Virus record (IMG/VR): IMGVR_UViG_3300033121_001869
Location: 109,076 to 173,075 of that record
DNA: 64,000 nucleotides
Strand: one strand, 5' to 3'
From: a virus
Lineage: Duplodnaviria; Heunggongvirae; Uroviricota; Caudoviricetes
This document shows, in pieces, positions 3,176 through 58,071 of the stretch. Each line of letters starts with the position of its first letter. The first letter of the stretch is position 1. The notes beneath the pieces are model-generated. The model was not told the DNA's origin. It made no database searches and saw nothing but the letters and a program-made list of their open reading frames with translations. The translations under genes and the position numbers were made by a program.

Positions 3176-3452
3176 GAACTTTTTTATTATATATATCTAT
3201 AAATTAAAAACCAAAACAATGGCAATAGCTACTTATGATTTTAGTGATGTAACTAGTTCATCACTTACAATATCATCAATTCCATCACACAGACACAATG
3301 ATTTAATTTTAGAATCAGAAAAATTAATTGAATATATTGATTTTGCATTTAAAATAATGGGAATTGAAATAAGTTATTCGCAATTTCAAAAAATGAACGA
3401 ATTTGAAAAAAAATCATTTTTAAGAGATTTAAAAATTAATAAAATTATATGA
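3174..3452 (+). CDS. hypothetical protein
   Basis: ORF of 92 aa. Confidence 0.4.
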   Translation: MNFFIIYIYKLKTKTMAIATYDFSDVTSSSLTISSIPSHRHNDLILESEKLIEYIDFAFKIMGIEISYSQFQKMNEFEKKSFLRDLKINKII

Positions 3453-3649
3453 TAGAAATAAAAGTAGAAAGTAAAGACTCATTAGAAAGGTCTTTAAAAT
3501 TACTCAAAAGAAAATTTGATAGAATTGGTGTGGTTAAAGAACTACGAAGAAGAAAAACCTTTACAAAAAAATCTGTTGAGAGAAGAGAAGAAATTAGAAA
3601 AGCAATTAGGAAAAAAGACTGGATTAAAGATAATAACCTTGAAAAATAA
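3449..3649 (+). CDS. rpsU: ribosomal protein bS21 homolog
   Basis: The 66-aa protein IKV..SLERSLKLLKRKFDRIGVVKELRRRKTFTKKSVERREEIRKAIRK aligns along its length to bacterial S21 (IKV..FD.ALRRFKR..EKAGVL.EVRRREFYEKPT.ERKR). Confidence 0.8.
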   Translation: MIEIKVESKDSLERSLKLLKRKFDRIGVVKELRRRKTFTKKSVERREEIRKAIRKKDWIKDNNLEK

Positions 3650-3959
3650 AGCCCAACAATCTTTAAAAGAATTATTTAATAATTATAATTCAACAAATCC
3701 AGTTGTAAATAATATCCCAATTAATTATTATGTGAAAAATCACACTTGTCCAAAATGTGATAGCATAAACACAGGTGCTAGATTTTTAATTAGTATTCCA
3801 CTAATAGATAATAAACTAGAAACTACAAAGGGAATAACTAAAGCTAATAGTTTCTGCAAAGATTGTGGATACGAAGATGAATATGGCGGATTTGAAAAAA
3901 CACATAGACAAATTAATAGGGATAAAAAAATAAATTCTATTTTAGATGGGGTTTCATAA
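3638..3959 (+). CDS. zinc-ribbon protein (CPKC...CKDC); start uncertain
   Basis: Two CxxC pairs. The tracked ORF (3516..) overlaps bS21 and has no internal ATG. A TTG at 3638 is the first start after the bS21 stop. Confidence 0.35.
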
Positions 3960-4356
3960 AAGAAATATAACAAAAGAAATAATACTTTCTAATATTAATA
4001 ATATTGATTCTTTATTAAGTGCTGATGCCTTTGTATTAGATGATTGGTCATCCAAATTTATACATGATTTAGATATTAAAGAAAGAGAACTCAGAAAAAA
4101 AATCAAAGAGGAAAACAAACTATCATCTGTATCATGTCCAGATAAAAATCCAAATTATAAAGATCTAAAATCTCTATCAGAAACTCTAATTGGATTAATG
4201 ACAGATCCCGATTGGTTAGATATTCATTTCACACAAGATAAAATTGGAAGATTTGATGTTCCATTTGAAAGTCTAGGAGTGTTAGAAGATTTAAAAAAGA
4301 TAGCTACTGATAGAATTATAAAATATTATGATGATAATGATAATATTTGTGCTTAA
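3946..4356 (+). CDS. hypothetical protein
   Basis: ORF of 136 aa. Confidence 0.45.
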   Translation: MGFHKRNITKEIILSNINNIDSLLSADAFVLDDWSSKFIHDLDIKERELRKKIKEENKLSSVSCPDKNPNYKDLKSLSETLIGLMTDPDWLDIHFTQDKIGRFDVPFESLGVLEDLKKIATDRIIKYYDDNDNICA

Positions 4357-4467
4357 AGAACAAAATTAATATAATATATTTTACCAATGAAAATCTTTTA
4401 CCACCTGAATATTTGGCAGAAATTACATCAGATGTGAATATAATACTTGAAAAAATTAAAAAATATA

Positions 4468-5205
4468 ATGGAGTTAAAAAGTTTATTAAATAAAAATCTA
4501 TATCTTATTTTAAATGTGGATAAAAATTCTGAATTAAAAGTCATAAAATCATCATTTTATGCGCTCTCTAAAAAATTACACCCCGATGTGAATCACAATA
4601 TTAGAGAAAATGTTTTATTTCAAGAAATATCCGAAGCATGGTCAGTACTTGGCGATGATTCTCTAAAATCAGAATATGATAAAAAATCTAAGTTTGGAAA
4701 AGACTACAATGAAATTGAAGAATTGTTTAAAATCGACTTAGAATATAATCACAAAGAAACTGAACGAATTTATAATGAGACTAAAAATCGAGAGGTATTA
4801 GATATTATAATTAAAATTAATAAAGATGATTTTGATGGTAGTATTGAATATGCAAGATATGTTTTATGTAAAGAGTGTAAAGGAAGTGGAAAAGATACCT
4901 CAACCAAACTTGCAATCAAAAATGATAAAGGTGAGATAAGATATTTTGAGGCCGATGATGGTTGTGACTATTGTGAAGGCACTGGAAAATCTTGGACAGG
5001 TCAAGATTGTGGATATTGTAATGGGCAAGGAAAAGTTGGAATTAATCCATGTAAAACATGTAATGGCGAGAGAAGAATTTTAGGTAAACAAAAACTTAAT
5101 AATGTTAAACTTTCTGGTGAAGAAACCAAAGTAGAATCTATGGGACATTTAAGCTATTATGATAGAGGAAAATGCGGGAATTTAATACTTAAAACTAATA
5201 TATAA
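4468..5205 (+). CDS. DnaJ-like co-chaperone (J domain plus CxxCxGxG zinc-finger repeats)
   Basis: HPD motif (KLHPDVN) in an N-terminal J domain. Four CxxC(x)G repeats follow (CKECKGSG, CDYCEGTG, CGYCNGQG, CKTCNGER). The ATG at 4468 is preferred over the TTG at 4447. Confidence 0.75.
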   Translation: MELKSLLNKNLYLILNVDKNSELKVIKSSFYALSKKLHPDVNHNIRENVLFQEISEAWSVLGDDSLKSEYDKKSKFGKDYNEIEELFKIDLEYNHKETERIYNETKNREVLDIIIKINKDDFDGSIEYARYVLCKECKGSGKDTSTKLAIKNDKGEIRYFEADDGCDYCEGTGKSWTGQDCGYCNGQGKVGINPCKTCNGERRILGKQKLNNVKLSGEETKVESMGHLSYYDRGKCGNLILKTNI

Positions 5206-5311
5206 ATTATGAAATATCTTAAAAAAATCATCTTAAAGGAATCTATCGAAATGTTAGATTCTAATTATATAGGGGATTCTAAGAGATATAATTGATAATG
5301 ATTATAAAGTA

Positions 5312-11100: not shown

Positions 11101-14100
11101 TATTAGCAGGATCTATAAAATCAACCCAAACATCTGAATTGTTATTTGATTTAACATCAATTGTAAATGTATAAGGAACACCGATTTCTATTGTGTTAAA
11201 TTGATAATATGTTTGTGTTCCGCTTATTTTATAAACATCATTAATTTTTGATATTCCAAAAATTCTTTCATCAATTAAATTAATATAAGGATTAAAAGCA
11301 GAATTGACAAAATATCCATCTTGGAAAGTACCATCTAACCAAATAGAATTATCCATCGTAGCATCAAAATTTGAGAATGTTCCAGAAAACCATAACATGT
11401 TTTTAAAGGATGTATCAGGTTTCTTTCTTCTCTTGGTTGATATTCTTTCTATTTCTGTATAGATTTTTTCATCTGTAATAAATCTATCTTTATTCTTACT
11501 AACAAATCCATCTTGCCAATATCCATAATAATACGCATTATAAGTTCTTATAAATTCATTATAGTTAGCAACATCTGTGTCTCCAACGTTAGTTCTTAAA
11601 TTAGAAGCATGTCCTTCAAATTGTCCTCTTGTGAATATACCATTTCTCCAATATTTACCCTTAAATTTACCACCATTAAATTCACCAGTGTACCAAGTCG
11701 AATTACTCTCTGTTGATCCAGATCCAAATTCACCACCATTAAATTTACCATTTTGCCAACTAAATTTATCAGATGTATATCCAAGATACATAAAAGGTGT
11801 TACGATCGATCCATCAAATAAATAATAATGTGAAGTAAATTTACCACCATTAAAAATACCATTTTTCCAAGATGCGACATCTGTAAATTCTCCGCCATTA
11901 AATATACCATCATACCATGTAGAGGAATAAGGATACGTATCATCATAAGTATTTAACATACTAACACCAAAAACACCCGCATTAAAAACACCATCTTTCC
12001 ATTCAATAGATGAATTGTTTGCAAAGTTTGATTGTGGATCCTCACATTTAAAATTCGCATTAATAACATTCACATTACTAAATGTTCCTGTCCATACTCT
12101 CGTATTTTTATATGGTATATTAGTTTTTCCAAAATTACCACCAGTAACCAACCCAGTTAAAAAGTTAGAATCATAGAAATTACCACCAACAAATGATCCA
12201 TATTCAAAATTACTTTTTTCAAAATCTCCATTTTTAAAAGTTCCATTTTTCCAAGACCACCTTGTTTTATTATCCACACCATTATTATCATAATAATAAG
12301 CATCATATGTTTGATCATAAACATTGGCATTTCCAGGCAAATTTGTTGTATTTTTATAGAATAATCCGTTTTCAAAAACACCATCATCCCAAGTACTATT
12401 TCTGAATATACCATTTTTAAATCCGCCGGATTTTAACCAATAATTACTTGAAGAAGTTGGTGATATTGAATAAGTAAAAGAAGATGTATTCCAATATCCA
12501 TTATGGAAAATCCCACCTGACCAAACATCACTTCCAGAAATGAAATGTGAGTATTGAACTAAACCACTCTTGATTGTATTTTTGTTGTTACTAAATATAA
12601 TATCAGATAGTAAAAGCTTTCTAAGATTAGATAAATTACTAAGTTCTCTATCCTTAACATCAAATTCAAAATTATCGACAACACAATTTTCAAAATAGGC
12701 TCTTCTAAAAATACCAGAAGATATTATTGAATTTTGGAACTTAACAGGATGCAAATAATTCCAAGAATTTTTGGCATTCATTGTCTTTAAATACTTCTGT
12801 GAACTAAAATCTGTAAATCCAGTAATAACAGATTGTGTATAAATATCCTGTAAGTAAATATTTCTCGAACTTGTTCCAGATGTAATTGAATTTATTTTAT
12901 AAGTATCTGGCATTGGAATTAAATTATCACCACCATTCAAATTAGAATCATAGTATAATCCATTAATAAAAGCTATATTAGAAACAGAATTAGTGCTGCC
13001 AATAATATCATTTCTTTTTTTACCACCAATTGGTAATGAAATTTCATTTGTAGATGATGTTACAGATGCAATATATCCATTTTTAGATTCAAATGAATAG
13101 TCGGCATTATAATTAAAGTAATTACCCGTTACCCATTTTGAGTTTTTAAATAATCCACTAACAAAATCAGAATCAAGTATATATGCTTTTGAGATGTCAA
13201 TAGTGTCTCCAATAAATGGTCTTGTTGAACTAGAAGATGTTCCATAATCAAAATCTTCACCTAAAGAAATAAAAATATCCAATGATGGTAGTGCAATATC
13301 ATTTGGAACTAATAATGTTGCCGTTCCAGAGATTATACCCGGAGAATTTCTATTCTCCTCCTTAGTTGATAATTGAACTAATACCTTACGTTCTGGTTTA
13401 GATCCCGGGATATCATAAGTTTGATTATAGTATCCTATTGAAAATTTATCATCAAAGAAGTTAAGTAATTCGGTACTCGGAATATTAATTCCAAGATCTT
13501 GGAAGTAAAAATTCTGAAATTCCCTCAATCTTAACCAATTAGTATCTGTCAAATAAAATTTGTACATTTTATAAGGAACATCCATATTTGAATCATACCA
13601 AATAATATTACTTTCCTCATATTCTTGAATCTTAACTATTTTATCTGATAACCAAGTTGAATCTAAAAATACAGAAGCGGCAATTTCTGAATTAACTGAT
13701 TTACACTTTTGTAATAATGAATTAAAAACATAAGAACTTATAATTGTCGAATTACTTATATTAGCAAATAATATATCGCTATTATAATAAACACCACCTC
13801 TTATATTTATTGAATATGTAGTAGAAGTATTAGTTAAGTAATCTTGTAAAACTGATGTTGTTACAGAATTTGTACCATAGACAACAGCCATATTAAATAT
13901 ATTACCATTAATTACATCACCTCCCGTAAAATTTGTATTGAAAATATAATTATACCCACTACCACCATTATTTGATGAATTTGCTCGTATTTGTGGAATC
14001 TCATATCTGTCAAAAACCGTAAAATATGAATTATTATTGACAATTGTAGAATCTAAAATTCCAGACTTCCAATCAACATTTAACGTGGACCCAAGATTCC

Positions 14101-15109
14101 ATTTTATATTATCTCCAACATAGGATATTCTTTCCTCATGTTGTCCAAGAAGTCCTTGATTATATGTTCCACTTTTTAAAAAGCCTCTCCTAAAATGTTG
14201 TTCAGTGATAATAGTTGGTAAATATGTTTTATCTATTTTCCACTTACTTTCTAGTGTATCAAAATAATAAATATATTCATTCTTAAATTTAACTCCACCA
14301 CTCTCAAAATTTCCATTCATTATTCTCAACTTTCCGTTGTTATAAAATCCTGATAACGACTGAGTCCATCCAGAATTTAAATAAGGAATAATGTTATTTG
14401 ATATAACATCTGATGTTATGTTTACAAAATAGTTATTTGATGATGTATTTCCACGAACAACAAATGAATTACCCAAAGATGAATATGTACCTGATAATGA
14501 AAAATCGGAAGCAAAAGATTGTAAGTTATACTCACCATCAACTATTGAAAAAGTCCCATTAAGAAATAGGAAATTATTAAATCCAATATCAAATTTATTT
14601 TGAATAACACCACTATCACTTCTCATTGATAAAACTTGACAATAATAGTCAAACTCATATTGATTAGACGCTACATATATTTTAACAAAATTATCTATTT
14701 CTTCTTCATTTGTCGGTAATTGACCAACATATTTTATATCTAAAACTATCTTACATCTATCAACATATAAAACTTTATATCCATCAACACCTTTTTTATA
14801 TCTATTATTAATAATAAAATTATCAGAATCATAAAATCCACCCTCAATGAAAACTCTATCTCCTAATTTATAATTATGATCTACCTCTGTATAAAAAAGT
14901 GAATAATCAACCCCAGAAATTCTATAAGGCTCAACCCATTTTTTCAATCGTATAGAGAATGTCTTTTTTGTAACATCGGATATTCTTTTTGTATCAATAG
15001 AAACAACACTATTTTCACTAATAGATGAAATATTCAATTGATCATTTTGAGTGATATTTGGCAGTTTTTTTCTTATAGTGACAAGAGGTGATTTACCTTG
15101 AATTTTCAT
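8171..15109 (-). CDS. giant tail fiber or host-recognition structural protein (2312 aa) with internal W-x-NG-x-F-NGG-x-F repeats
   Basis: Single uninterrupted ORF with a repeated motif block (WKDGVFNAGVF, WYDGIFNGGEF, WKNGIFNGGKF, WQNGKFNGGEF, WYTGEFNGGKF, WRNGIFTRGQF). It is immediately followed by the tail-collar gene. Confidence 0.7.
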   Translation of the reverse strand: MKIQGKSPLVTIRKKLPNITQNDQLNISSISENSVVSIDTKRISDVTKKTFSIRLKKWVEPYRISGVDYSLFYTEVDHNYKLGDRVFIEGGFYDSDNFIINNRYKKGVDGYKVLYVDRCKIVLDIKYVGQLPTNEEEIDNFVKIYVASNQYEFDYYCQVLSMRSDSGVIQNKFDIGFNNFLFLNGTFSIVDGEYNLQSFASDFSLSGTYSSLGNSFVVRGNTSSNNYFVNITSDVISNNIIPYLNSGWTQSLSGFYNNGKLRIMNGNFESGGVKFKNEYIYYFDTLESKWKIDKTYLPTIITEQHFRRGFLKSGTYNQGLLGQHEERISYVGDNIKWNLGSTLNVDWKSGILDSTIVNNNSYFTVFDRYEIPQIRANSSNNGGSGYNYIFNTNFTGGDVINGNIFNMAVVYGTNSVTTSVLQDYLTNTSTTYSINIRGGVYYNSDILFANISNSTIISSYVFNSLLQKCKSVNSEIAASVFLDSTWLSDKIVKIQEYEESNIIWYDSNMDVPYKMYKFYLTDTNWLRLREFQNFYFQDLGINIPSTELLNFFDDKFSIGYYNQTYDIPGSKPERKVLVQLSTKEENRNSPGIISGTATLLVPNDIALPSLDIFISLGEDFDYGTSSSSTRPFIGDTIDISKAYILDSDFVSGLFKNSKWVTGNYFNYNADYSFESKNGYIASVTSSTNEISLPIGGKKRNDIIGSTNSVSNIAFINGLYYDSNLNGGDNLIPMPDTYKINSITSGTSSRNIYLQDIYTQSVITGFTDFSSQKYLKTMNAKNSWNYLHPVKFQNSIISSGIFRRAYFENCVVDNFEFDVKDRELSNLSNLRKLLLSDIIFSNNKNTIKSGLVQYSHFISGSDVWSGGIFHNGYWNTSSFTYSISPTSSSNYWLKSGGFKNGIFRNSTWDDGVFENGLFYKNTTNLPGNANVYDQTYDAYYYDNNGVDNKTRWSWKNGTFKNGDFEKSNFEYGSFVGGNFYDSNFLTGLVTGGNFGKTNIPYKNTRVWTGTFSNVNVINANFKCEDPQSNFANNSSIEWKDGVFNAGVFGVSMLNTYDDTYPYSSTWYDGIFNGGEFTDVASWKNGIFNGGKFTSHYYLFDGSIVTPFMYLGYTSDKFSWQNGKFNGGEFGSGSTESNSTWYTGEFNGGKFKGKYWRNGIFTRGQFEGHASNLRTNVGDTDVANYNEFIRTYNAYYYGYWQDGFVSKNKDRFITDEKIYTEIERISTKRRKKPDTSFKNMLWFSGTFSNFDATMDNSIWLDGTFQDGYFVNSAFNPYINLIDERIFGISKINDVYKISGTQTYYQFNTIEIGVPYTFTIDVKSNNNSDVWVDFIDPANKVVDSTDGPGIYSVSWTASNTTSFQLIIQGTSIDIKSIFLYPGTQSGFRGETCIWENGEAYSSDFYYSTWKQGVFDSYANSTQGNSWGIIWKNGIAKYMNAYNVLWENGIWKNGNWNGSPFTQTATYSGVVVYPGFTSDIILNISTYASQSFSNSFNSLYSNWDKIHINNSFLGTNSYSDYNNDLYGITASLSLPTGVGYKKEFSIIGYDLLTENYDWSYFLVNGTSSYTTWTSTGQYPVDSVVVYNNLLYFNTTGNNNPQLPPDLDAVNWTFSGGGGVYQWNPLGSYTFNDLVLYNGFVFENQTGVNGYNPIYGEVLTRFGNGYFLSGVWENGIWNEGWREDLTTIFCDNLAQFDNSLKNKAYKNNIWTWTFDLNVLNVGANSPGLITDFNIGDKVSVGNIVTIDINNNRRLIRDYLEIIDINYDNITNKTSITLEVNINFPIRSIERDSEYHLIYVSKNIWLNGAFLNGMFMNGVWNNGLFKGHPYITQMIDSQWVDGVFKGGIFRGLTSSYEDDNDNIISYHTGLIQKFDFYDENVSGQPYQFKYNSWIDVNFYESEGVNINRINNVYKQTSLGFTASFIENNFYGYPTVDVLESNSTFRNGFDLNSQTYRLGWKWKEYTDFLDGYGEFIDINELIYTNFDNTNQGFGISNFIADGWTFSYLSDGFSPATNSIISNIGSYESEWLYLTGGRRSPQVIPLDDNVNFTVDIFDNSNVEIDNLRYSFIEIEADNLSFTQSSNGVVNPIVFYNNYPATYSIGAINTLFAGSDITIPINQITSPSVVRQREYFFNKRDLKMLLFSGPTYSLRFKKIRFVETDMIPFTQIADDCILFKTISTWDTTPLVLNPGVEGGYVGPLVNPGDPGFNVDDPSNPQVGVSGYAGVWGQALPVDSTSTTSGLDGNLIVIPSQGLPTWDNFYLTGAGAGCLSYINESVNAPFVAVAPDIDYGDSNFNYIKSANVTISETNLNISSVAE
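11570..12560 (-). repeat. imperfect tandem repeats encoding the W-x-NG-x-F-NGG-x-F beta-solenoid-like units
   Basis: The DNA motif (A)AATTTACCACCATTAAA and variants recur at about 11661, 11743, 11839 and 11886. The repeat is visible at protein level throughout. Confidence 0.5.
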
Positions 15110-15207: not shown

Positions 15208-15966
15208 ATGATAGGAGATAAATATGCAAATCTAATAGTGTTAGAAGAAGTAAACAAAAATAAAAGGAATGAAAGAATGTGGTTATGTCAATGTGATTGT
15301 GGCAATAAAAAAATTATTAAGGGATATAATCTCAAAATTGGCAAAACAAAATCTTGCGGATGTATTAAAACGGGAATTAAGCCAAAAAATAGGATCAATC
15401 TAAAATTAAATGACTTCATTTTAATCAAATTTATTGAAATGGATAAAAATAGAATATCCTTGTGGTTAGCTAAGTGTAAATGTGGGAAAGAAAAAATAAT
15501 TAGAAGTAATACTAGGGTAAAATCTTGCGGGTGTAGGAAGAAGGAAACTGATTCCAATCGAAGTGGTAAAAATAATCCTAGATACAATCCACTACTAAGT
15601 GATGAATCGAGAAATGATAAACGATTATATGAAGGTTATGATAAATGGAGATTTCAAATAAAAGAAAAATATCAATTTCAATGCATAGTCTGTGGAGATG
15701 ATCGCGGCGGAAATCTAATCAGTCATCATTTAAATTCCTATCATGATAACATAGATGAAAGACTAAGCACAAAAAATGGTGTCTGTCTATGTGAAATATG
15801 TCATAAAAAATTTCATAAAGAATATGGATATGGTAAAAATAATAAGTATCAATTCTTTGAATTTATGAAAAAATATTGTATTTTTGTAAAAAATAAAAAT
15901 CATAATGAGTCAGTGGAAAGTTTCAAAAGAGATAATAAGGATTTTTACACATCCATCAGCGGATAA
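15208..15966 (+). CDS. HNH homing endonuclease (free-standing) with N-terminal Cys-rich DNA-binding module
   Basis: N-terminal KYANLIVLEEV...WLCQCDCGNKKII...KTKSCGC module common in phage HNH endonucleases. C-terminal HHL..N..LC..CH..FH HNH motif. Confidence 0.7.
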   Translation: MIGDKYANLIVLEEVNKNKRNERMWLCQCDCGNKKIIKGYNLKIGKTKSCGCIKTGIKPKNRINLKLNDFILIKFIEMDKNRISLWLAKCKCGKEKIIRSNTRVKSCGCRKKETDSNRSGKNNPRYNPLLSDESRNDKRLYEGYDKWRFQIKEKYQFQCIVCGDDRGGNLISHHLNSYHDNIDERLSTKNGVCLCEICHKKFHKEYGYGKNNKYQFFEFMKKYCIFVKNKNHNESVESFKRDNKDFYTSISG

Positions 15967-16993
15967 TTTATCACTATGCAAAGTAGGATCATATCAAGTT
16001 GTTGTTCAGAAAGGATTATATAATGATGGTGATGAAGTAATTTTCGCCCCAGAAAAATCTATATTAACAGGCGATATCAAAAATGAATTTGAAAAATACC
16101 TTGCTGGTCCAACAAAAGACAGAGTAAAAGCAGTTCGTCTGCGTGGTGAAATTTCTTCTGGAATTATCATTCCGAAATTTCTTGTTCCTAATATGAATGA
16201 TTACCCAATTGGGTTAGACATTTCAGAATTATTGGGCATCACACATTACGAACCGCCAATTCCAACACAGTTAGCTGGTAAAGTTAAAACCTATGATATG
16301 CCATTCGTTGGATCTCATGATTGTGAGCACGTCGGTGTATATGTTAATGACTTAATTGATGGTGAAAGGGTTGTTATTACCGAAAAATTACATGGTAGTC
16401 AATTTATTTTAGCTCATAATGTTGATGTAAATGAAACAATTGTTTCTTCAAAAGGTCTTTTGAAGAATGGATTAACAATTGAAGAAAGTGATGATAATGC
16501 ATATTGGATTGCTTCAAAAAATGAAAATTTAATTGAAAAAATCAGACAAAATTTTGAATCTGGTGTAATTCAAATTTTTGGTGAAGTAATTCCAATTCAA
16601 AGTGGATATACATATGGTCAAACAAAGCCTACTGTAAGAATATTTGATGTTCGATTAAATGGTGAATCAATTCCATATGATGTAGTTCCAACTGATTTAA
16701 GAAATATTTGGGTCCCAGTTGTTTTTGATGGAAATATCAATTTAGATAAAAAGGAAATTGTTATATTTTCTGATCCTGAAAGAGGAATTCATAAAACTAA
16801 AATCGATTTCATTTTACCAACAAATATTGTTGAAATGTGCAAAGGAAAGGAATTGGTGTCTGGAAACGAATTACATATCCGAGAAGGTGTTGTTATTCGA
16901 CCATACATTGATAGAAATGCTAAAGATGGAACAAAACTTCGATTGAAAGTAATCAATCCAGCTTACAAAGAAACAGGTGAAGAAATTAACTAA
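15905..16993 (+). CDS. ATP-dependent RNA ligase, Rnl2 family (putative)
   Basis: Nucleotidyltransferase motifs in order: I VITEKLHGSQF (KxHG, as in T4 Rnl2 KIHGTN), III IFGEVI, IV RIFDV, V IREGVVIRP, and a C-terminal lysine motif KLRLKVINP. Confidence 0.55.
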   Translation: MSQWKVSKEIIRIFTHPSADNLSLCKVGSYQVVVQKGLYNDGDEVIFAPEKSILTGDIKNEFEKYLAGPTKDRVKAVRLRGEISSGIIIPKFLVPNMNDYPIGLDISELLGITHYEPPIPTQLAGKVKTYDMPFVGSHDCEHVGVYVNDLIDGERVVITEKLHGSQFILAHNVDVNETIVSSKGLLKNGLTIEESDDNAYWIASKNENLIEKIRQNFESGVIQIFGEVIPIQSGYTYGQTKPTVRIFDVRLNGESIPYDVVPTDLRNIWVPVVFDGNINLDKKEIVIFSDPERGIHKTKIDFILPTNIVEMCKGKELVSGNELHIREGVVIRPYIDRNAKDGTKLRLKVINPAYKETGEEIN

Positions 16994-16997
16994 TAGG

Positions 16998-17024
16998 TTC
17001 CATGCTTTTTAGCATGGAATTTTT
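16998..17024 (+). terminator. intrinsic terminator after the RNA ligase gene
   Basis: TTCCATGC-TTTTTA-GCATGGAA hairpin followed by TTTT. Confidence 0.55.
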
Positions 17025-17030
17025 ATATAT

Positions 17031-17549
17031 ATGAAAATGAAATATATTAAAGATATAGAGACATTCAATGAATCTTTAACTCCTAAAGATTATACAATTT
17101 TTAAAATAAGATATTATTCAGACGCAGTAAATGTAGTAAAAGGAAAATTTTCTGAAACAGATGAAGATAGACAACAAGCTTGGGATAGAGCTAAACAATA
17201 CAATGACTTTTTCTGGAAAATGGTCGAGAAAGTAACTGGAAATCCACATGAATATTGGTCATTAAAATACTTCCTATCATCAACAGATTGTGCTCGTGAA
17301 GAATTACATGAATTATATGATATAATAATTCCTGAATCAGAAGAATATTATTATTGGTATATTCCAAATACAATGACAGATTTAATTGAATGGATAAAAT
17401 CTGAATGTAAATTACCATTTCAAATTGTTCAAAGAGCCCCATATAACCGAGTTATTCAAGATAGAGAAAAAACAACTTGGAGAAGAGAAGAAGCAGAAAA
17501 GTTTGTAAAAAAACATATGCCAGAATTATCACAACATCAGACTAATTAA
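17031..17549 (+). CDS. hypothetical protein
   Basis: ORF of 172 aa lying between the RNA ligase and the sirtuin. Confidence 0.5.
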   Translation: MKMKYIKDIETFNESLTPKDYTIFKIRYYSDAVNVVKGKFSETDEDRQQAWDRAKQYNDFFWKMVEKVTGNPHEYWSLKYFLSSTDCAREELHELYDIIIPESEEYYYWYIPNTMTDLIEWIKSECKLPFQIVQRAPYNRVIQDREKTTWRREEAEKFVKKHMPELSQHQTN

Positions 17550-17563
17550 AAAATATAATTCTT

Positions 17564-18289
17564 ATGAAAAAGAAGATATTAGTATTTAGTGGTGCTGGAA
17601 TTTCAAAAGAAAGTGGAATTGACACTTTTAGAGATTCTGGTGGATTGTGGAACAATTATGATGTAATGAAAGTAGCACATATTGATGCTTGGAAAAAAGA
17701 TCCACAAACCGTCATAGATTTTTATAATTTTAGAAGAAAAGATGTGGGCTCAGTAAAACCAAATAAAGCTCATAAAATTTTGGCAGAATTGGAAAAATAT
17801 TTTGATGTTACAATAGCTACACAAAACGTCGATCCTTTACATGAAATGGCAGGTTCTACAAATGTAATACACCTACATGGTGAAATAACAAAACTAAGAA
17901 GTGAAAAAGATCCAAACTTAGTTGTTGAATGGAAAGAAGAATTAAAACTTGGACAATTAGCAGATGATGGAGAACAATTGAGACCTGATATTGTTTGGTT
18001 TGGTGAAGAATTAAACTATGATCGTGTTAACAAAGCTATGGATGCAGCAAAAAATGCTGATGTGTGTGTAATAGTAGGAACTTCAATGCAAGTAGCTCCA
18101 GCAAATCAAATACCATTTTTGATTCCAGAAACCGCATTAATATACTATGTCGACCCAGGAGACAAAGATTTTTACTTACCAAAAATGAGAGAATTTTTCT
18201 TCTATCATATTCAAAAAAATGCAACTGAAGGGATGCAAGAATTAAAAAAGGATTTATTTTCAACTTTTAAAATAAAAACGAATGCATAA
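17564..18289 (+). CDS. Sir2-family NAD-dependent deacylase or ADP-ribosyltransferase (sirtuin) lacking the zinc ribbon
   Basis: GAGISKESGIDTFR Rossmann motif, TQNVDPLHE, a catalytic His in IHLHGE and RPDIVWFGE. The Cys4 zinc-ribbon cysteines normally flanking this region are absent. Confidence 0.75.
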   Translation: MKKKILVFSGAGISKESGIDTFRDSGGLWNNYDVMKVAHIDAWKKDPQTVIDFYNFRRKDVGSVKPNKAHKILAELEKYFDVTIATQNVDPLHEMAGSTNVIHLHGEITKLRSEKDPNLVVEWKEELKLGQLADDGEQLRPDIVWFGEELNYDRVNKAMDAAKNADVCVIVGTSMQVAPANQIPFLIPETALIYYVDPGDKDFYLPKMREFFFYHIQKNATEGMQELKKDLFSTFKIKTNA

Positions 18290-19583
18290 TATTGAATCAT
18301 TAGCTCGAAAAGCTATTAATGAATTAAAATTATATAACTTACCAAAAAGGGGATTTTTGGCAGGAGGGAGTTTGGCAAATTTAGTGTGGGAATTTGCATC
18401 AGGAAATAAAGCCGTTATTAATGATATTGATATTTTTCAATTTGAAAGTATAATTGAAAAGAACGAAGTTAAAAATGATTGGTATGATAATAAAAAACTC
18501 TACTACCTCAAAAAGGAAATAAAATATTATGAAGATGATTATTCCGGATTTTCACATACATCCAATAATAAAGAATTTTACATAATAAATGATACTGAAA
18601 ATGAAGGAATATTTAATTATATAAACTATTCAGCTAATAGCACTGATCCTCAATTAATTATAAACTCATTTGATATAAATTGTACTCAAATTGGATATCT
18701 AATTGAAGAAGATAAATTCTACTACACCAAAGGATTTGAAGACTTTATTAATACTGGTGAATTAAAACTCACAAATATACTAAGTCCAGCCCACTCTGCC
18801 ATAAGACTTTTTAAAAAGAGTGATGAATTAAATGCAGCTCTAGATGAATTGGAAATTAAAATGTGCCAATATGTTCTTCATCGAAATATGACAGATATAA
18901 ATAGAAAGTGTTTCTCAGATAAGTATGCAAAAACATATAAAAAGTATGAGGATAAATTAAATAAATATTTCAAATTAGTTCTAAGTGAACAATTAACAAA
19001 GTTCTTTCAAGAAGAAAAAGGAGTTAATATAAAAATATATCATCTAGATTTTCCACAGGAAGAAAAAATTGAAATAAACCCATGTGATGAATTATTAATG
19101 AGTATTAGCTCAATTAATCACATCAAAATCTTTGATGATGATAATTTAAATAAAGTTTACAGAAGTGAAGATTTAATATTTTATATTCGTAGTATAAAAA
19201 ATTCCAATTCATTAGAACTTTGGAACAAACTACATTTAATTTTCAATAGAGAAGATTACTCAGATAATACCGAAGATCCTAATGATATTGAATTATTAAT
19301 GAGATTAATAACATATGCTCCCGAAACTATCAATAATTTCAAGTATTTAAAATTATCTGAGCAAATAAAAATAATGAAAACATTATTCAAAAAGTTTGAT
19401 TATGATCCTATCATAGCAATATCTGTTATGGAAAAAATAAAATTAGATCCTGAAACTGACTTAGATGAAGATGATTTATTATTATTGGAACTATCTGTTC
19501 GAAGACAAATAATAAATGATACAAATAATAAAGTAAATAAAGTATTATATGGAGAACCAGCAATTGTCACCAGATATTTTTAA
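18282..19583 (+). CDS. pol-beta-type nucleotidyltransferase, class II CCA-adding enzyme/poly(A) polymerase-like head domain (putative)
   Basis: GFLAGGSLANLV...NDIDIF matches GGxVRD...DxD motif A. NSFDINCTQIG resembles motif B (RDFTINA). GFEDFINTGELKL resembles motif C. SPAHSAIRLFKK resembles the EDPLRxLRAxRF motif D. Confidence 0.45.
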   Translation: MHNIESLARKAINELKLYNLPKRGFLAGGSLANLVWEFASGNKAVINDIDIFQFESIIEKNEVKNDWYDNKKLYYLKKEIKYYEDDYSGFSHTSNNKEFYIINDTENEGIFNYINYSANSTDPQLIINSFDINCTQIGYLIEEDKFYYTKGFEDFINTGELKLTNILSPAHSAIRLFKKSDELNAALDELEIKMCQYVLHRNMTDINRKCFSDKYAKTYKKYEDKLNKYFKLVLSEQLTKFFQEEKGVNIKIYHLDFPQEEKIEINPCDELLMSISSINHIKIFDDDNLNKVYRSEDLIFYIRSIKNSNSLELWNKLHLIFNREDYSDNTEDPNDIELLMRLITYAPETINNFKYLKLSEQIKIMKTLFKKFDYDPIIAISVMEKIKLDPETDLDEDDLLLLELSVRRQIINDTNNKVNKVLYGEPAIVTRYF

Positions 19584-22140: not shown

Positions 22141-22884
22141 ATGAAAAAATGCAAAAAATGCAATTTTGAAAAAAATGAAAAGGAATTCAGTAAAAATATA
22201 AAATATAAAGATGGATTACAATCTCATTGTAAAGATTGCTTCAAAGATTATTATAAAAATAATAAACACATCATTAAAAAAAACCACAACAATAGACGTG
22301 ATGAAATTAACAAGTATAATAAACATTATAAAAAATTAAATAAAAATAAAATAATAGAATATAATAATGTGTATCGAGATATAAATAAAGATAAAATCAA
22401 AGAAACTCGGAAAAACAATTACGATAAGAATAAAGAGGAAATACTAAAATATCAAAAAGAATATAGATCCAAAAATCCAATTAATAGAGAAATTATTAAA
22501 AAAAGATTCAATGAAAAGTATAATAATGATGAATTATTTAGACTTAGATATAGTATATCAACATTGATTAGAAAATCAATAAAAAAAGGAGGGTATTTAA
22601 AAAAATCAAAAACAATGGATATTTTAGGATGTTCGTTTAATGAATTATTAGATCATCTTAATAACAATTCATATGGATTTACATATAGTAACTCTTATGA
22701 CATTGACCATATAATACCTCTATGTACTGCAAAAAATGAAGAAGATATAATTAAATTAAACCACTATTCAAATTTACAATTATTACCATCAGAATATAAT
22801 AGAAAAATAAAAAGGTCAAACAGTTGGGATCCTCTCAATTTTGAAAACTATTTTGAAAATTCTTTTTTATCGCTTGAAATATAA
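22141..22884 (+). CDS. HNH homing endonuclease (free-standing)
   Basis: N-terminal CKKC...HCKDC zinc motif and C-terminal DIDHIIP...N...N..LL..N HNH_3-type motif. The ATG at 22141 is preferred over the upstream start. Confidence 0.6.
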   Translation: MKKCKKCNFEKNEKEFSKNIKYKDGLQSHCKDCFKDYYKNNKHIIKKNHNNRRDEINKYNKHYKKLNKNKIIEYNNVYRDINKDKIKETRKNNYDKNKEEILKYQKEYRSKNPINREIIKKRFNEKYNNDELFRLRYSISTLIRKSIKKGGYLKKSKTMDILGCSFNELLDHLNNNSYGFTYSNSYDIDHIIPLCTAKNEEDIIKLNHYSNLQLLPSEYNRKIKRSNSWDPLNFENYFENSFLSLEI

Positions 22885-23957: not shown

Positions 23958-24114
23958 TTTCTTCAATATATTTTTTTATCAAGTATTCCAATAATCTTGA
24001 CTTTTTGTAAAATTTTTTAGATATCGCAATCTCTTGTAATTTTTTATTAAGATATGGATCAATACTTATTGATATTTTAATACGTTTATCCTCCTCTGGT
24101 ATCTTATTATTCAT
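23947..24114 (-). CDS. small ribbon-helix-helix (CopG-like) DNA-binding protein (putative)
   Basis: A 55-aa ORF (MNNKIPEEDKRIKISISIDPYLNKKLQEIAISKK...) with a beta-strand then two-helix pattern, placed directly upstream of the M16 peptidase gene. Confidence 0.3.
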   Translation of the reverse strand: MNNKIPEEDKRIKISISIDPYLNKKLQEIAISKKFYKKSRLLEYLIKKYIEENDN

Positions 24115-28459: not shown

Positions 28460-28827
28460 TGAGTAAAACTATTGATATTATATTAAGCGGTGATAAATTT
28501 AAACCTAGTAGTCTATGTTTAGAAACTAAAATATTAGCAGAATATGGATCTATAAGTAAGAGAGGAAGATATAAAGGAAAGCCATCACCTTATGGATTAG
28601 CTTATATGATTATACCACTTGATTCTCTGACAGAAACTCTTGATAATTTAATAAGTAACATTAATGATTTAAAACAATCAGGTGTTAGTGATATTGAATT
28701 AGATTCTGTTTTTTGGGATGATGAAAAAAGTGATTTTTTAAATTATAAAAAATCAGAGAAAGTAACAAAATTACTCAACAAAATTAATAGTATATTAAAT
28801 GGAAACAGCTATAATAAGAGTGAATAG
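28459..28827 (+). CDS. hypothetical protein
   Basis: ORF of 122 aa. Confidence 0.45.
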   Translation: MSKTIDIILSGDKFKPSSLCLETKILAEYGSISKRGRYKGKPSPYGLAYMIIPLDSLTETLDNLISNINDLKQSGVSDIELDSVFWDDEKSDFLNYKKSEKVTKLLNKINSILNGNSYNKSE

Positions 28828-47339: not shown

Positions 47340-48224
47340 ATGAGAAAATTAACAAATGATGAATTTATAAGAAAAGCAATATCTATACACGGTGAAAAAT
47401 ATGATTACTCATTGGTGGAGTACATAAATTCTAAAAAAAAGATTAAAATAATTTGTGGAAAGCATGGTATATTTGAACAGCAACCATTTAATCATATTTT
47501 AGGTAAGGGGTGTAATATTTGTAATCCTAGTTTTGGACCTAAAATAGAATTAGAAGATTTTATTTTAAGGAGTAATAAAATTCATAACTTTGAATATGAT
47601 TACTCACTGGTTGATTATGTAAATAATAAGACGAAAGTAAAAATAATTTGCAAAAAGCATGGTATTTTTGAACAAGAACCAAGAGGTCATTTATCTGGAT
47701 TGAAATGTTCAATCTGTCAAGGTAATAAAAAAATGACTACACAAGATTTTATTGATAGATGTTCAGTAATATTTCAAAATAAATATGAGTATTCAATATC
47801 TAAAATAAATGGAACAAAGAAAAAAACTAAAATTTTGTGTCCAAAGCATGGTGAATTCTCACAAACTGTCGAGTCACACCTACGAGGACATGGTTGTCCG
47901 AGGTGTAATGACTCAAAGGGTGAAAAAATAATCTCTTGGTTTTTAGATAAGAATAATATTGAATATGAAACTCAAAAAACATTCGAAGGGTGTAAAGATG
48001 TTAGAAAACTAAGATTTGATTTTTTTATACCTGCACTTAATACCTGTATTGAATTTGATGGAAAGCACCATTTTGATATAATTGAATTTGGAGAGGAAAA
48101 ACTAAAAGATACTCTTAAAAAAGATAAGATTAAAAATGAATTTTGTGATGAAAATCAAATAAATTTGATAAGAATATCTTACAAGGAAAACATATTTGAA
48201 CAATTAGAAAAAATATTAAAATGA
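47340..48224 (+). CDS. putative homing endonuclease: three tandem ~55-aa zinc-ribbon repeats plus C-terminal PD-(D/E)xK (Vsr/DUF559-like) nuclease domain
   Basis: Three repeats of the form EFIRKAISIHGEKYDYSLVEYINSKKKIKIICGKHGIFEQQPFNHILGKGCNIC. The C-terminus FDFFIPALNTCIEFDGKHH...D..K is an endonuclease-like fold. It abuts the ligA stop. Confidence 0.6.
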   Translation: MRKLTNDEFIRKAISIHGEKYDYSLVEYINSKKKIKIICGKHGIFEQQPFNHILGKGCNICNPSFGPKIELEDFILRSNKIHNFEYDYSLVDYVNNKTKVKIICKKHGIFEQEPRGHLSGLKCSICQGNKKMTTQDFIDRCSVIFQNKYEYSISKINGTKKKTKILCPKHGEFSQTVESHLRGHGCPRCNDSKGEKIISWFLDKNNIEYETQKTFEGCKDVRKLRFDFFIPALNTCIEFDGKHHFDIIEFGEEKLKDTLKKDKIKNEFCDENQINLIRISYKENIFEQLEKILK

Positions 48225-53093: not shown

Positions 53094-53155
53094 AAAAGTA
53101 GGAAGTAGGTGTGGCGCAACCTGTAAACGGCAGAACCTGTTTACCCTACTTTTTT
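53094..53155 (+). ncRNA. structured leader or attenuator-like RNA element upstream of smpB (or terminator of the upstream operon)
   Basis: Direct repeat GTAGG-AA-GTAGG gives two alternative partners for the downstream CCTAC. Inner hairpin GTAAAC-ggcagaacct-GTTTAC. Duplicated AACCTGT. A U6 run follows. Confidence 0.35.
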
Positions 53156-53167: not shown

Positions 53168-53611
53168 ATGAAAATAGTTAATAGAAAAGCATATTATGAT
53201 TATCATGTACTCGATGAATTTATCGCCGGTATTATGCTTTCTGGATCTGAAGTAAAGTCATTAAGACAAAGTGATGTTAATTTTAATGATGCATATATTA
53301 TTTTCAGTAAAGGCGAATTATTCATAAAAAATATGAGAATAGCATCGTATAAAGATGCAACATATAATAATCATGATGAAAAGCGTGATAAGAAAATCCT
53401 CTTAAAAAAGAGAGAGATAAATAAGATTTCAAGAGAGATAAGTGAGAAAGGAATATCTGTTATACCACTTGAAATTTTCATGATAAAGAATCGTTTTAAA
53501 ATAAAAATTGGAATTTGTCGTGGTAAAAAGAATTGGAATAAAAAGGAAATTATAAAAACAAAAGATATTGAAAGAGATATAAAAAGAAATGAGGGTTTAA
53601 AATTAAAATAA
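53168..53611 (+). CDS. smpB: SsrA-binding protein SmpB
   Basis: YHVLDEFIAGIMLSGSEVKSLRQSDVNFNDAYIIFSKGELFIKNMRIASYK...HDEKRDKKILLKKREINKI...KGISVIPLEIFMIKNRFKIKIGICRGKK aligns along its length with bacterial SmpB. The ATG at 53168 is preferred over the GTG at 53111. Confidence 0.8.
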   Translation: MKIVNRKAYYDYHVLDEFIAGIMLSGSEVKSLRQSDVNFNDAYIIFSKGELFIKNMRIASYKDATYNNHDEKRDKKILLKKREINKISREISEKGISVIPLEIFMIKNRFKIKIGICRGKKNWNKKEIIKTKDIERDIKRNEGLKLK

Positions 53612-56311: not shown

Positions 56312-56317
56312 TTTTAT

Positions 56318-56325: not shown

Positions 56326-56329
56326 CTTA

Positions 56330-56686
56330 ATGAAAGATAAAATTGGAATTTGGACATCAATTATTTGCTTGATACATTGTTTAGTATTCCCAATACTTGC
56401 AACATCATTCCCAATATTTCTAAAACTTGATGCAAAGGTTGAAATTACACTATTTGTAATAGCATTTATCATAGGATCCTTATCATTTATTGATAATATA
56501 GTCAAACACAAATATTATCTATCGCTATTATTTTTCATAATAGGATTTATGTTAATATTCGTATCACTTTTTACATATCACCCTTTAACATATCCTGGAT
56601 TGCTATCATTAATAATGGCACATTATCTAAATTATAAAAAAATAAAAGAAAATGATGGATGTCACCCACATGGATGTAAACACTAA
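56330..56686 (+). CDS. small polytopic membrane protein with Cys/His-rich C-terminal tail (possible metal-binding or transport)
   Basis: Three to four hydrophobic helices, CLIHC in TM1, and a C-terminal DGCHPHGCKH. Confidence 0.5.
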   Translation: MKDKIGIWTSIICLIHCLVFPILATSFPIFLKLDAKVEITLFVIAFIIGSLSFIDNIVKHKYYLSLLFFIIGFMLIFVSLFTYHPLTYPGLLSLIMAHYLNYKKIKENDGCHPHGCKH

Positions 56687-56697
56687 AATTTAAAAAA

Positions 56698-57093
56698 ATG
56701 TCACACTGCATATCAATATACATCTTAAAAAAAGAAGAAATAAGAAATGAAAAAATCGATTCTATAATCGATGATAAGAAAAATCAAATTAAATTCACCG
56801 AAATGGATGAGGGTTTATTAGCAACAACTTATATACCAAATATTAAAAACTTCGCATCTAATAAAACAATTGCTAAAATTGAAACAGACTACTTTGGAGG
56901 ATTTGGAGATCAATCAGCAACACTATATGAAAATGGTGTAAAAGTGTTTGAAAAATCAGATCAAGTAGATAGATCATCCGAACCAATAAATGAAGTATTA
57001 AGAATTTTAGGTGTCAAAAAGAAAAATAATATGGATGAATTTGATACAATTGGACTAGGAAAGTATAGAACCAATCAAGATTTTAAACATTAA
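56698..57093 (+). CDS. hypothetical protein
   Basis: ORF of 131 aa. Confidence 0.45.
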   Translation: MSHCISIYILKKEEIRNEKIDSIIDDKKNQIKFTEMDEGLLATTYIPNIKNFASNKTIAKIETDYFGGFGDQSATLYENGVKVFEKSDQVDRSSEPINEVLRILGVKKKNNMDEFDTIGLGKYRTNQDFKH

Positions 57094-57127
57094 TCAAAAC
57101 TTAAAATATAATAGTATTATTAAAAGA

Positions 57128-57655
57128 ATGGCAAAAAAGATTTTCAAGAAAGAAAGAAAACATCGGATTAACAACGAAGTTAAATTTCCACAAGTTAGAA
57201 TTATAGGTGATTTTAACGGTGTGATAATGTCCTCATACGAGGCATATCAGATAGCACAGGATGAAGAAAAAGATTTAATTTTAATAAACGAAAACGCTAA
57301 TCCACCAGTTGTCAGAATTGAAGATTATGGAAAATTCATCTATGATCAAGAAAAAAAGGAAAAAGAGGCTAAAAAAATATCCAAAAAAACTGAATTAAAA
57401 GAAATATCATTATCTCTGACAATAGCAGATCATGACTTAGGAATTAAAGCTAAAAAAGCCAATGAATTTTTGGTGGATGGTGATAAAGTCAAACTTTCAC
57501 TCTTAATGAAGGGAAGACAAAACACAATGAAAGAGCAAGGAGAATTGGTTATGTTAAAATTTGCAACACTTGTTGAAAATCACGGAATTCCTGAAGCAAT
57601 GCCAAGGCTAGAAGGAAATAGATGGCACATGATTCTAAAACCAAAGAAAAAATGA
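57128..57655 (+). CDS. infC: translation initiation factor IF-3
   Basis: RINNEVKFPQVRIIGDFNGVIMSSYEAYQIAQDEEKDLILINENANPPVVRIEDYGKFIYD aligns to E. coli IF3 [63 protein letters not shown]. The C-terminal domain ends ...ILKPKKK. Confidence 0.8.
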   Translation: MAKKIFKKERKHRINNEVKFPQVRIIGDFNGVIMSSYEAYQIAQDEEKDLILINENANPPVVRIEDYGKFIYDQEKKEKEAKKISKKTELKEISLSLTIADHDLGIKAKKANEFLVDGDKVKLSLLMKGRQNTMKEQGELVMLKFATLVENHGIPEAMPRLEGNRWHMILKPKKK

Positions 57656-58071
57656 AAACATCCAGTGGCGTATTAATTACATTTAATAATAAAATATTAT
57701 TATGTCACCCAACTAATGCCTCTCATATAAGCACTTATTCACCACCAAAAGGACTGATAAATGAGGGTGAAAATCTAATAGATGCCGCAATAAGAGAATG
57801 TTTTGAAGAGACATCAATTAAATTAGACAAATCATTGATTGGTGATAGAGTATATGTGCCCTACTACAAGGGAAGTAAAATCTATAAAGAAGTTTTCCTA
57901 TTTAAGGTAAAAATAAACTCTCTTTCGGAAATTGGATTAGAAAATCTAATAATAGATAAAAATAAACTTCAACTTGATGAAGTAGATTGGGCTGGATTTA
58001 TTGATAAAAAGTCAGCTGAAAATAAAATATTCCATCGATTTAAACATATTTTACATGAAATTCTCGATTAA
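57652..58071 (+). CDS. Nudix hydrolase
   Basis: Nudix box GLINEGENLIDAAIRECFEETSI (Gx5Ex7REUxEExGU). The ATG overlaps the infC stop as ATGA. Confidence 0.65.
   Translation: MKTSSGVLITFNNKILLCHPTNASHISTYSPPKGLINEGENLIDAAIRECFEETSIKLDKSLIGDRVYVPYYKGSKIYKEVFLFKVKINSLSEIGLENLIIDKNKLQLDEVDWAGFIDKKSAENKIFHRFKHILHEILD

Follow-up and report, generated by a model that had tools for sequence, protein, structure and literature searches.

Introduction

Huge phages encode parts of the translation apparatus. The genomes described by Al-Shayeb et al. 2020 (PMC7162821) carry genes for translation initiation factors (IF1 and IF3), the ribosomal proteins S4, S1, S21 and L7/L12, transfer-messenger RNA (tmRNA), SmpB, release factor (RF), ribosome recycling factor (RRF) and up to 15 aminoacyl-tRNA synthetases (aaRS), and the same study already proposed a model in which host translation is redirected by the phage. 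Its genomes larger than 634 kb, together with the Lak phages, make up the Mahaphage clade, whose predicted hosts are Bacteroidetes. Here, we analyzed a stretch of 64,000 nucleotides (positions 109,076 to 173,075 of the IMG/VR virus record IMGVR_UViG_3300033121_001869; hereafter, the window) that holds seven translation-related genes, encoding a bS21 homolog, an S1-domain protein, a protein with a domain resembling the C-terminal domain (CTD) of bL12, IF3, SmpB, a YqeY-domain protein and a truncated GluRS that we refer to as mini-GluRS. Our analysis indicates that the window probably derives from a huge phage genome of the Mahaphage type, in which the translation genes are scattered, intact and selectively kept, and that the most likely host of the phage belongs to the Bacteroidota.

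Two of these genes have described counterparts. Phage bS21 has been discussed in the context of Bacteroidetes hosts by Chen et al. 2022 (PMC9723584) and McNutt et al. 2023, and has been proposed as a replacement for the host protein (PMC9723584). In Bacteroidia, bS21 shapes the mRNA selectivity of the ribosome (PMC9976891), and its Tyr54 stacks on A1534 of the 16S rRNA and helps to sequester the anti-Shine-Dalgarno tail (PMC9976891, PMC9723584). GluQRS (YadB) is a truncated GluRS paralog that glutamylates the queuosine of tRNA-Asp. It consists of a GluRS-type core of ~280-300 aa without an anticodon-binding domain, and it keeps the zinc-binding insertion (PMC4381286). Bacteria also possess full-length GluRS that are naturally devoid of the zinc-binding domain, in Verrucomicrobia, Tenericutes and Planctomycetes (Chongdar et al. 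2015, PMC4381286).

Relationship of the window to published huge phages

The window has a GC content of ~27% and a coding density of 95% with the standard code; the stop codons across it are TAA (62), TGA (12) and TAG (6). Its likeness to known phages at the DNA level is almost nil: a megablast search with 25 kb of the window against 50,697 phage records returned a single match of 689 bp at 72%, and protein-level searches were therefore needed. A protein of 1644 aa served as a clade marker in these searches. With tblastn, it matched LR756502 (642 kb) at 45% identity over 80% of its length and LR745206 (635 kb) at 43%, and its N-terminal part also matched LR756501/3 (735 kb), LR756504 and Lak megaphages. 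LR745206, LR756502, LR756501 and LR756504 are "uncultured phage" genomes of the huge-phage set of Al-Shayeb et al. 2020. Lak phages, Sphingomonas phage PAU and the Tenacibaculum phages PTm1/PTm5 also share with the 1644-aa protein its N-terminal ~300 aa.

A local tblastn comparison of 80 window proteins with 50-kb pieces of LR745206 and LR756502 recovered ~30 orthologs in conserved order, located from ~0.1 to 54.5 kb of the window. Synteny with these two genomes extends over ~45 kb, with protein identities of 29-79%. Besides this gene order, the window shares with the Mahaphage genomes the categories IF3, S1, S21, L7/L12-like, SmpB and aaRS, the tRNA arrays, and a genome style that is low in GC and poor in Shine-Dalgarno sequences. 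It differs from them in being a distinct lineage, as the near absence of DNA likeness indicates, and in combining IF3, mini-GluRS and the L12-like gene. Proteins identical to those of the window are encoded on many metagenome contigs, which come from different samples and independently span most of the window, indicating a non-chimeric assembly. Proteins that are identical or 91% identical are found on contigs of 182-444 kb.

Genes for capsid, portal or terminase were not identified within the window, and its membership of the clade therefore rests on synteny and homology with the published genomes. The same lack, together with the analogous translation genes carried by some large plasmids (Al-Shayeb et al., PMC7162821), would fit a source other than a phage, either a large plasmid or a low-GC cellular genome (such as a reduced symbiont or a Candidate Phyla Radiation bacterium) with ordinary housekeeping genes. 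We consider such a source highly improbable, since the syntenic ~45 kb match curated, published huge-phage genomes, the window yielded neither an rRNA gene nor a ribosomal-protein operon, and its translation genes occur singly and are scattered and divergent. Moreover, the best cellular matches of mini-GluRS among 185,579 bacterial and archaeal species genomes reached 28-35% identity, and the window's PHROG matches include a phage-only family (for a giant protein of 1057 aa), a homing HNH endonuclease and a weak tail-fibre match.

Composition and conservation of the translation gene set

Within this probable huge-phage segment, the seven translation open reading frames (ORFs) named in an original prediction made from the sequence letters were all present at the positions given there, with the S1 and GluRS-like genes on the minus strand (Table 1). 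Each of the seven proteins scored above its Pfam gathering cut-off, the L12 CTD marginally, and all the frames are intact; the two failings that the prediction had itself envisaged, profiles without significance and disrupted pseudogenes, were not encountered. At the level of the NCBIfam equivalog cut-offs, S21, IF3 and SmpB passed, and S1, L12, GluRS and GluQRS fell below.

The prediction had described the toolkit as unusually broad and had suggested examining co-occurrence in related phage genomes. This comparison, made with tblastn, showed that the breadth is typical of the clade, as LR745206, LR756502, LR756504 and LR756501 carry most of the set. S21, S1, SmpB, YqeY and mini-GluRS were found in LR745206, and S1, SmpB, YqeY, an L12-like gene and a full-length-type GluRS in LR756502; both lack IF3, and jointly they hold six of the seven genes. 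LR756504 and LR756501/3 gave matches for IF3, SmpB, S1, YqeY and GluRS, and the Lak phages for SmpB and part of S1. The presence of all seven genes in one record was not shown for any record searched. Furthermore, the addition of an initiation factor, SmpB and an aaRS had been presented as a step beyond established knowledge, and these had already been listed by Al-Shayeb et al. 2020 (PMC7162821). The gene set is thus a further lineage of an already published huge-phage feature, a toolkit described since 2020.

Two points bear on how such searches are read. When S21 and the L12-like protein were searched by tblastn against the whole phage collection, no match was obtained at E 1e-3, and local tblastn against the fetched relatives found both; the negatives from the whole collection result from query length and database size, not from absence. 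In addition, many phage-labelled records with full-length housekeeping infC, smpB, gltX and yadB genes look like mislabelled bacterial contigs and were disregarded (examples are 'Listeria phage LM 4-11-1', 'Staphylococcus phage SA 1306 Kay', 'Acinetobacter phage MD-2021a' and human-faeces 'Bacteriophage sp.'). Since these suspect contigs inflate naive counts of phage translation genes, per-organism counts of IF3, SmpB and GluRS were not taken at face value.

We estimated the ratio of non-synonymous to synonymous substitution rates (dN/dS) from comparisons within populations or with relatives. The values were 0.026 for IF3 (the strongest constraint in the set), 0.068 for SmpB and 0.097 for YqeY, all three against the related 226-kb contig L019, 0.05 for S1 and 0.02-0.09 for mini-GluRS (0.094 against LR745206); synonymous sites are near saturation, which makes these values approximate while leaving their direction unambiguous. 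Population variants point the same way, with synonymous to non-synonymous counts of 3:0 in SmpB, 40 to 9 in S1, and 13:1 and 18:0 in mini-GluRS. IF3, SmpB, YqeY, S1 and mini-GluRS are thus under purifying selection and are not pseudogenes. The exception among the genes tested is the fast-evolving L12-like gene, with a dN/dS of 0.3-0.9. For S21, only identical copies were retrieved, and hence no value could be obtained.

The relaxed constraint on the partial L12-like domain, the truncation of the GluRS and the altered critical residues in S21 and SmpB might also be expected of recently captured host genes in decay, carried as passengers without a function for the phage. The selection and conservation data largely refute this explanation, to which we attach almost no credence. 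The dN/dS values of 0.03-0.10 hold for IF3, SmpB, YqeY, S1 and mini-GluRS across relatives with near-saturated synonymous sites, and orthologs occupy syntenic positions in phages with just 45-60% protein identity. Similarly, the truncated GluRS architecture is kept in more than 120 clusters, and no close cellular donor was found among the species genomes searched.

The bS21 homolog and the S1-domain protein

Phage-encoded bS21 was reportedly described by Mizuno et al. in 2019. The bS21 homolog of the window, which we read as a selectively kept huge-phage gene like the rest of the set, scored 44.8 bits against Pfam Ribosomal_S21 (cut-off 27; E 1e-11), with aa 3-56 spanning the whole profile, and 37.9 bits against TIGR00030 (cut-off 28.95). 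Among solved structures, the best two bS21 chains scored 43 and 40 bits, one of them being F. johnsoniae 7jil_z, and E. coli bS21 scored ~23. LR745206 has an ortholog in syntenic position that is 49% identical. The window protein is short, basic and Bacteroidia-like, and has chaperone and protease genes nearby (DnaJ, FKBP, ClpP), as described for the Bacteroidetes-phage bS21 of Chen et al. 2022. It differs from these at the Tyr54 position, where all the phage bS21 that they analyzed have an aromatic residue (PMC9723584): ungapped alignments with 7jil_z and 9i5v_9 put Arg54 where F. johnsoniae has Tyr54, with Trp58 four residues on. The ortholog in LR745206 keeps Tyr there. Compared with the S21 of the Al-Shayeb huge phages, the window protein is without the N-terminal extension that many of theirs have. 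The ORF upstream of S21 is preceded by a Shine-Dalgarno-like motif, which was considered as a possible echo of rpsU autoregulation and was rejected, as it lies upstream of the start called by other gene callers and is not conserved in LR745206.

The S1-domain protein scored 74.4 bits against Pfam S1 (cut-off 22; E 9.3e-21), with two clear domains at aa 225-288 and 305-362. More of the protein is covered by the rpsA profiles, to which aa 38-367 align, and aa 90-365 are collinear with residues 53-342 of E. coli bS1. The label "truncated bS1" that it had been given does not hold, as the protein has four S1-type domains, which align to domains 1-4 of E. coli bS1. In bS1, an N-terminal segment docks on uS2; the first ~40 aa of the window protein match no profile. 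Orthologs are 56-60% identical in LR745206/LR756502 and 39-41% identical in LR756501/LR756504.

A free L12-CTD-like domain

The protein predicted to be bL12-CTD-like appears to carry a CTD-like domain, but with an unrelated tail and no bL12 N-terminal domain it is no stalk protein. The CTD-like domain begins at residue 1; the N-terminal dimerisation/bL10-binding domain of bL12 and the hinge are absent, and an extra tail of ~75 aa without any match follows. The match to the Pfam Ribosomal_L12 CTD was marginal (27.5 bits against a cut-off of 25.9; E 4e-6) and covered aa 8-41 only, half of the domain. Likewise, TIGR00855 was matched at profile positions 64-95 only, with 20.9 bits against a cut-off of 84.4. 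The motif KLQFVKLIKSTTGWGLKEAKD resembles bL12 helices, and the syntenic homolog in LR756502 keeps TGFGLKEAKD.

An AlphaFold2 single-sequence model reached a predicted local distance difference test (pLDDT) score of 70-87 over aa 1-78, with a beta-alpha-alpha-beta-alpha-beta topology. When this model was searched with Foldseek, the top match was T. maritima L12 (E 9e-3, 24% identity) and the next was ClpS, at 11%. As modelled, the domain has the topology of the bL12 CTD/ClpS fold, together with the helix signature TG(L/W/F)GLKEAKD, and its identity is 22-26% to L12 versus 8-13% to ClpS. Among 5.8 billion proteins, the protein forms one sequence cluster only. Differences between strains, unlike those in any other gene tested, are mainly non-synonymous (e.g. 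11 vs 3) and cluster at residues 5-24 and near the C-terminus. Without the stalk-binding N-terminal domain, the protein cannot sit on the ribosomal stalk; its domain layout suggests that it more likely acts off the ribosome, for example by binding translational GTPases.

IF3, SmpB and YqeY

IF3 scored 85.5 bits against Pfam IF3_C (E 2.5e-24), 76.8 bits against IF3_N (E 1.4e-21) and 152 bits against TIGR00168 (cut-off 60), covering profile positions 2-170 of 170, and it aligned end to end with solved IF3. With identities of 63-91%, the phage-type IF3 family spans more than 120 clusters; the contigs that carry it reach 444-480 kb. In addition to LR756504 and LR756501, IF3 is present in LR756500 and LR756511. 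The ORF that follows encodes a NUDIX hydrolase, which is no translation factor; the end of the originally predicted span, at 58071, corresponds to the end of this ORF. The first 34 nt of the NUDIX ORF lie within the 3' end of IF3 (57622..57655), and this overlap recurs in contig L019 (10495..10528), whose IF3 is 91% identical. In the gene calls of some strains, the NUDIX gene starts later and overlaps IF3 by 4 nt. The gene order in L019 is sigma70, thioredoxin, SmpB, YqeY, MerC-like, IF3, NUDIX, ClpP and FKBP, with SmpB, YqeY and IF3 arranged as in the window, followed by 18 tRNAs and further aaRS genes.

SmpB scored 165.5 bits against its Pfam family (E 9.2e-49) and exceeded the equivalog cut-offs of both NF003843 (166 bits vs 130) and TIGR00086 (165 vs 119). 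It aligns through the tail to solved SmpBs. A GTG start at 53111 is possible, and the ATG at 53168 matches independent metagenome gene calls and the profile alignment. The tail reads GKKNWNKK in the window and in L019, and has the canonical form GKKL(Y/W)DKR in LR745206/LR756502. The YqeY protein scored 57 bits against its Pfam family (cut-off 27; E 3.1e-15) over profile positions 1-124 of 143, and its orthologs in LR745206/LR756502, 52-53% identical, are syntenic and lie downstream of SmpB.

A GluRS core without either tRNA-recognition module

The GluRS-like gene had been labelled GluQ-RS-like. Our results identify it instead as a truncated GluRS, since GluRS scores above GluQRS by both sequence and fold and the zinc-binding insertion is gone. 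Mini-GluRS scored 172.4 bits against Pfam tRNA-synt_1c (E 1.4e-50) and 229 bits against gltX_bact, below the equivalog cut-off of 290. The GluQRS models gave 76-118 bits with cut-offs of 250-453 (118 vs 256 in one model). Against solved structures, GluRS chains scored ~152 bits and YadB 63. Mini-GluRS thus resembles GluQRS in its size and in having no anticodon-binding domain, and differs from it in the deletion of the insertion that GluQRS keeps; it is not a GluQRS ortholog.

Residues ~94-169 of E. coli GluRS, which form the putative zinc-binding, acceptor-positioning domain (pZBD), are reduced to ~12 aa in mini-GluRS. The protein stops near E. coli GluRS residue 320-330, past the stem-contact region, and the anticodon-binding region is wholly missing. 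Its class I HIGH motif reads FHLGT and its KMSKS motif KLSKR, and the residues of the glutamate pocket are present as well. Across 36 members of the family, R5, S9, RIDDTD, PTYNF and RGxDH are invariant. A minority of the family has Gln for the first His of HIGH, as MQ(L/I)GN versus FHLGT, and K-x-SKR and RIDDTD occur in all. Family members are 250-284 aa long and 65-100% identical; they form more than 120 clusters, and the contigs that bear them reach 348 kb. LR745206 holds a 79% identical ortholog and a second GluRS-like match. No close cellular relative was found in the 185,579 species genomes, and no description of a truncated phage GluRS architecture was found in literature searches.

As natural GluRS without the pZBD are known, loss of the pZBD alone need not abolish charging. 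These bacterial enzymes differ from mini-GluRS in being full length with an anticodon-binding domain (PMC4381286), and the unusual feature of mini-GluRS, as predicted from its alignments, is the combined loss of the pZBD and the anticodon-binding domain. Mini-GluRS probably does not serve as a standard enzyme for tRNA-Glu charging. It could conceivably represent an undescribed, phage-restricted class of aaRS-like proteins whose substrate lies outside ordinary tRNA-Glu charging. It might then glutamylate some modified base or an RNA specific to the phage, or rely on a separate partner that binds RNA, although we regard the whole proposal as doubtful. YqeY was considered as a tRNA-binding partner in trans; this candidate is weakened, as LR756502 has YqeY without mini-GluRS and the YqeY domain of Deinococcus GlnRS acts in cis only (PMC1865053).

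A related and equally tentative explanation is that several of the seven proteins have been exapted outside canonical translation, which overlaps with a selectively kept huge-phage gene set rather than opposing it. The L12-like protein would then act as a ClpS-like adaptor or divert translational GTPases as a decoy, the S1 protein would be a general RNA-binding or RNA-chaperone subunit, and mini-GluRS would serve as a modification enzyme or glutamyl-transferase for a tRNA base or some other acceptor, in the way that GluQRS does. For the L12-like protein, exaptation is in line with the missing bL12 N-terminal domain, the fast evolution, the ClpS among the fold matches and the ClpP gene in the window, whereas the identities given above favour L12 over ClpS. 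The S1 protein scores below the bS1 equivalog cut-offs and is nonetheless collinear with bS1 domains 1-4. In the case of mini-GluRS, the loss of both tRNA-recognition modules, the Gln for the first HIGH His in some members, and the two GluRS-like places in LR745206 (the mini form and the second GluRS-like gene) argue for another role; however, KLSKR, RIDDTD, PTYNF and RGxDH, invariant across 36 sequences, are consistent with adenylate chemistry on glutamate, and zinc-binding domain loss occurs in natural full-length enzymes (PMC4381286).

Initiation signals, tRNAs and a proposed mechanism

Returning to the translation gene set of a Mahaphage-type genome, we examined the initiation signals of the window. 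A Shine-Dalgarno core at -20 to -4 was found upstream of 2 of the 80 window genes versus a background of 7.8%, and the leaders are A/T-rich. Huge phages that carry S1 rarely have Shine-Dalgarno sequences (PMC7162821), and their scarcity here fits the Shine-Dalgarno-independent initiation of the Bacteroidia type. Along with the host prediction for the clade and the F. johnsoniae-like S21, it points to Bacteroidota as the most likely host.

No tRNA, tmRNA or other Rfam family was found inside the window; a tRNA array begins ~500 bp past its right edge, as seen in contig L001. Such arrays follow the FKBP gene in L001 (18855..20163), L019 (16183..18816) and L016 (47554..49023). Several of the predicted tRNAs (Asn, Lys, Val, Cys and Thr) are overlong, at 82-88 nt, and one call has a two-base anticodon; the excess length suggests introns or atypical structures.

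The mechanism that we consider best supported is the published model of ribosome redirection. The phage bS21, the four-domain S1 protein and IF3 would act on host 30S subunits during infection and would tilt Shine-Dalgarno-independent initiation in favour of phage mRNAs with their A/U-rich leaders. SmpB could keep ribosomes recycling, with either the host tmRNA or a phage tmRNA encoded elsewhere, and YqeY, mini-GluRS and the tRNA array may service the tRNA pool.

Several observations weigh against this reading, beyond the missing capsid, portal and terminase genes and the limited precision of the dN/dS values. We infer the mechanism from homology. The seven genes are spread over at least four separate loci on both strands and form no single operon, which leaves coordinated regulation, and the coordinated strategy that the original prediction envisaged, conjectural. 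The S1 protein reaches 106 bits where the best rpsA-containing model requires 624, and 82 where the model of 391 positions requires 368. S1 domains are ubiquitous. Two proteins have substitutions at positions that model systems show to be critical for function: the bS21 homolog has no aromatic residue at the Tyr54 position, and in SmpB the conserved GKKxYDKR-type tail motif is altered, with NKK for DKR; the DKR residues matter for tagging, according to mutagenesis of E. coli SmpB. Finally, ARAGORN and Rfam searches detected no tmRNA within the window.

Other genes of the window

The remaining gene content fits a large phage. DNA and RNA metabolism are represented by an SbcC-like ATPase, a non-specific endonuclease, an RNA ligase, SIR2, a Dam methylase, a primase, an NAD-dependent DNA ligase, an HNH homing endonuclease, and NUDIX and HIT proteins. 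Further genes encode a sigma-70-type factor, thioredoxin, CoaE and a Band_7 protein. The window also holds a set of genes for protein folding and turnover (DnaJ-like, M16 peptidase, ClpP and FKBP-type prolyl isomerase; Table 1). The ClpP gene near SmpB is suggestive of a role in the handling of tagged proteins.

Searches of PHROGs and Pfam with the giant ORFs and their small neighbours returned almost nothing. Of the giant proteins, the one of 1057 aa is 67% identical in LR745206 and LR756502. A co-directional run comprises an RNA ligase (RNA_ligase plus a PHA02142 OB domain), an ORF of 172 aa, SIR2 and a protein of 433 aa that weakly matches a nucleotidyltransferase. Both LR745206 and LR756502 encode orthologs of SIR2 and of the 433-aa protein, the latter elsewhere in the fetched regions. 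This run may be an RNA repair or counter-defence module.

The contigs of some strains carry GIY-YIG/NUMOD genes (L001, 3246..3959 and 13297..14364; L004, 2751..3464) that are missing at the matching sites of the window, one of which lies between the genes for the sigma factor and thioredoxin. Homing endonucleases are thus polymorphic at the strain level.

Table 1. Features of the window, with positions counted from its first nucleotide
Feature	Positions	Strand	Basis or remark
bS21 homolog, 66 aa, Bacteroidia-like	3449..3649	+	Pfam Ribosomal_S21, TIGR00030
DnaJ-like protein	4447..5205		
Giant ORF, 2312 aa	8171..15109	-	no Pfam domain
Co-directional run from RNA ligase to 433-aa protein	15905..19583	+	
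M16 peptidase	22848..23966		
Mini-GluRS, 278 aa	25887..26723	-	GluRS catalytic core without pZBD insertion and without anticodon-binding domain
L12-CTD-like domain (aa 1-78) with unmodelled helical tail (aa 79-153)	28799..29260	+	not a bL12 ortholog
S1-domain protein, 370 aa, four S1-type domains	34124..35236	-	match bS1 domains 1-4
Giant ORF, 1644 aa, function not assigned	36777..41711	-	clade marker; no Pfam domain
Giant ORF, 1057 aa	41945..45118	-	no Pfam domain; phrog_29329 (unknown function)
HNH homing endonuclease	47340..48224	+	adjoins NAD-dependent DNA ligase
SmpB, 147 aa, full length with C-terminal tail	53168..53611	+	Pfam SmpB, NF003843
Stand-alone YqeY/GatB-tail-like domain protein, 134 aa	54090..54494	+	Pfam YqeY; no GatB catalytic domains
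IF3, 175 aa, N-domain, lysine-rich linker and C-domain	57128..57655	+	IF3_N, IF3_C, TIGR00168
NUDIX hydrolase	57622..58071	+	Pfam NUDIX, E 5.6e-10
ClpP	59366..60061		
FKBP-type prolyl isomerase	63556..63972		

Implications

As a whole, the gene set confirms once more, in another lineage, a feature already published for huge phages, which has cataloguing value and comes as no surprise. The most novel elements are mini-GluRS, the Arg54 of bS21 and the free L12-CTD-like domain, and they offer handles on the still unproven idea that huge phages re-program ribosomes. Mini-GluRS, being conserved, apparently restricted to phages and stripped of both tRNA-recognition modules, is a tractable candidate for biochemistry. 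A free L12-CTD-like domain might interfere with translational GTPases, and a bS21 variant without the tyrosine that sequesters the anti-Shine-Dalgarno sequence is directly relevant to the proposed re-specification of initiation by phage bS21.

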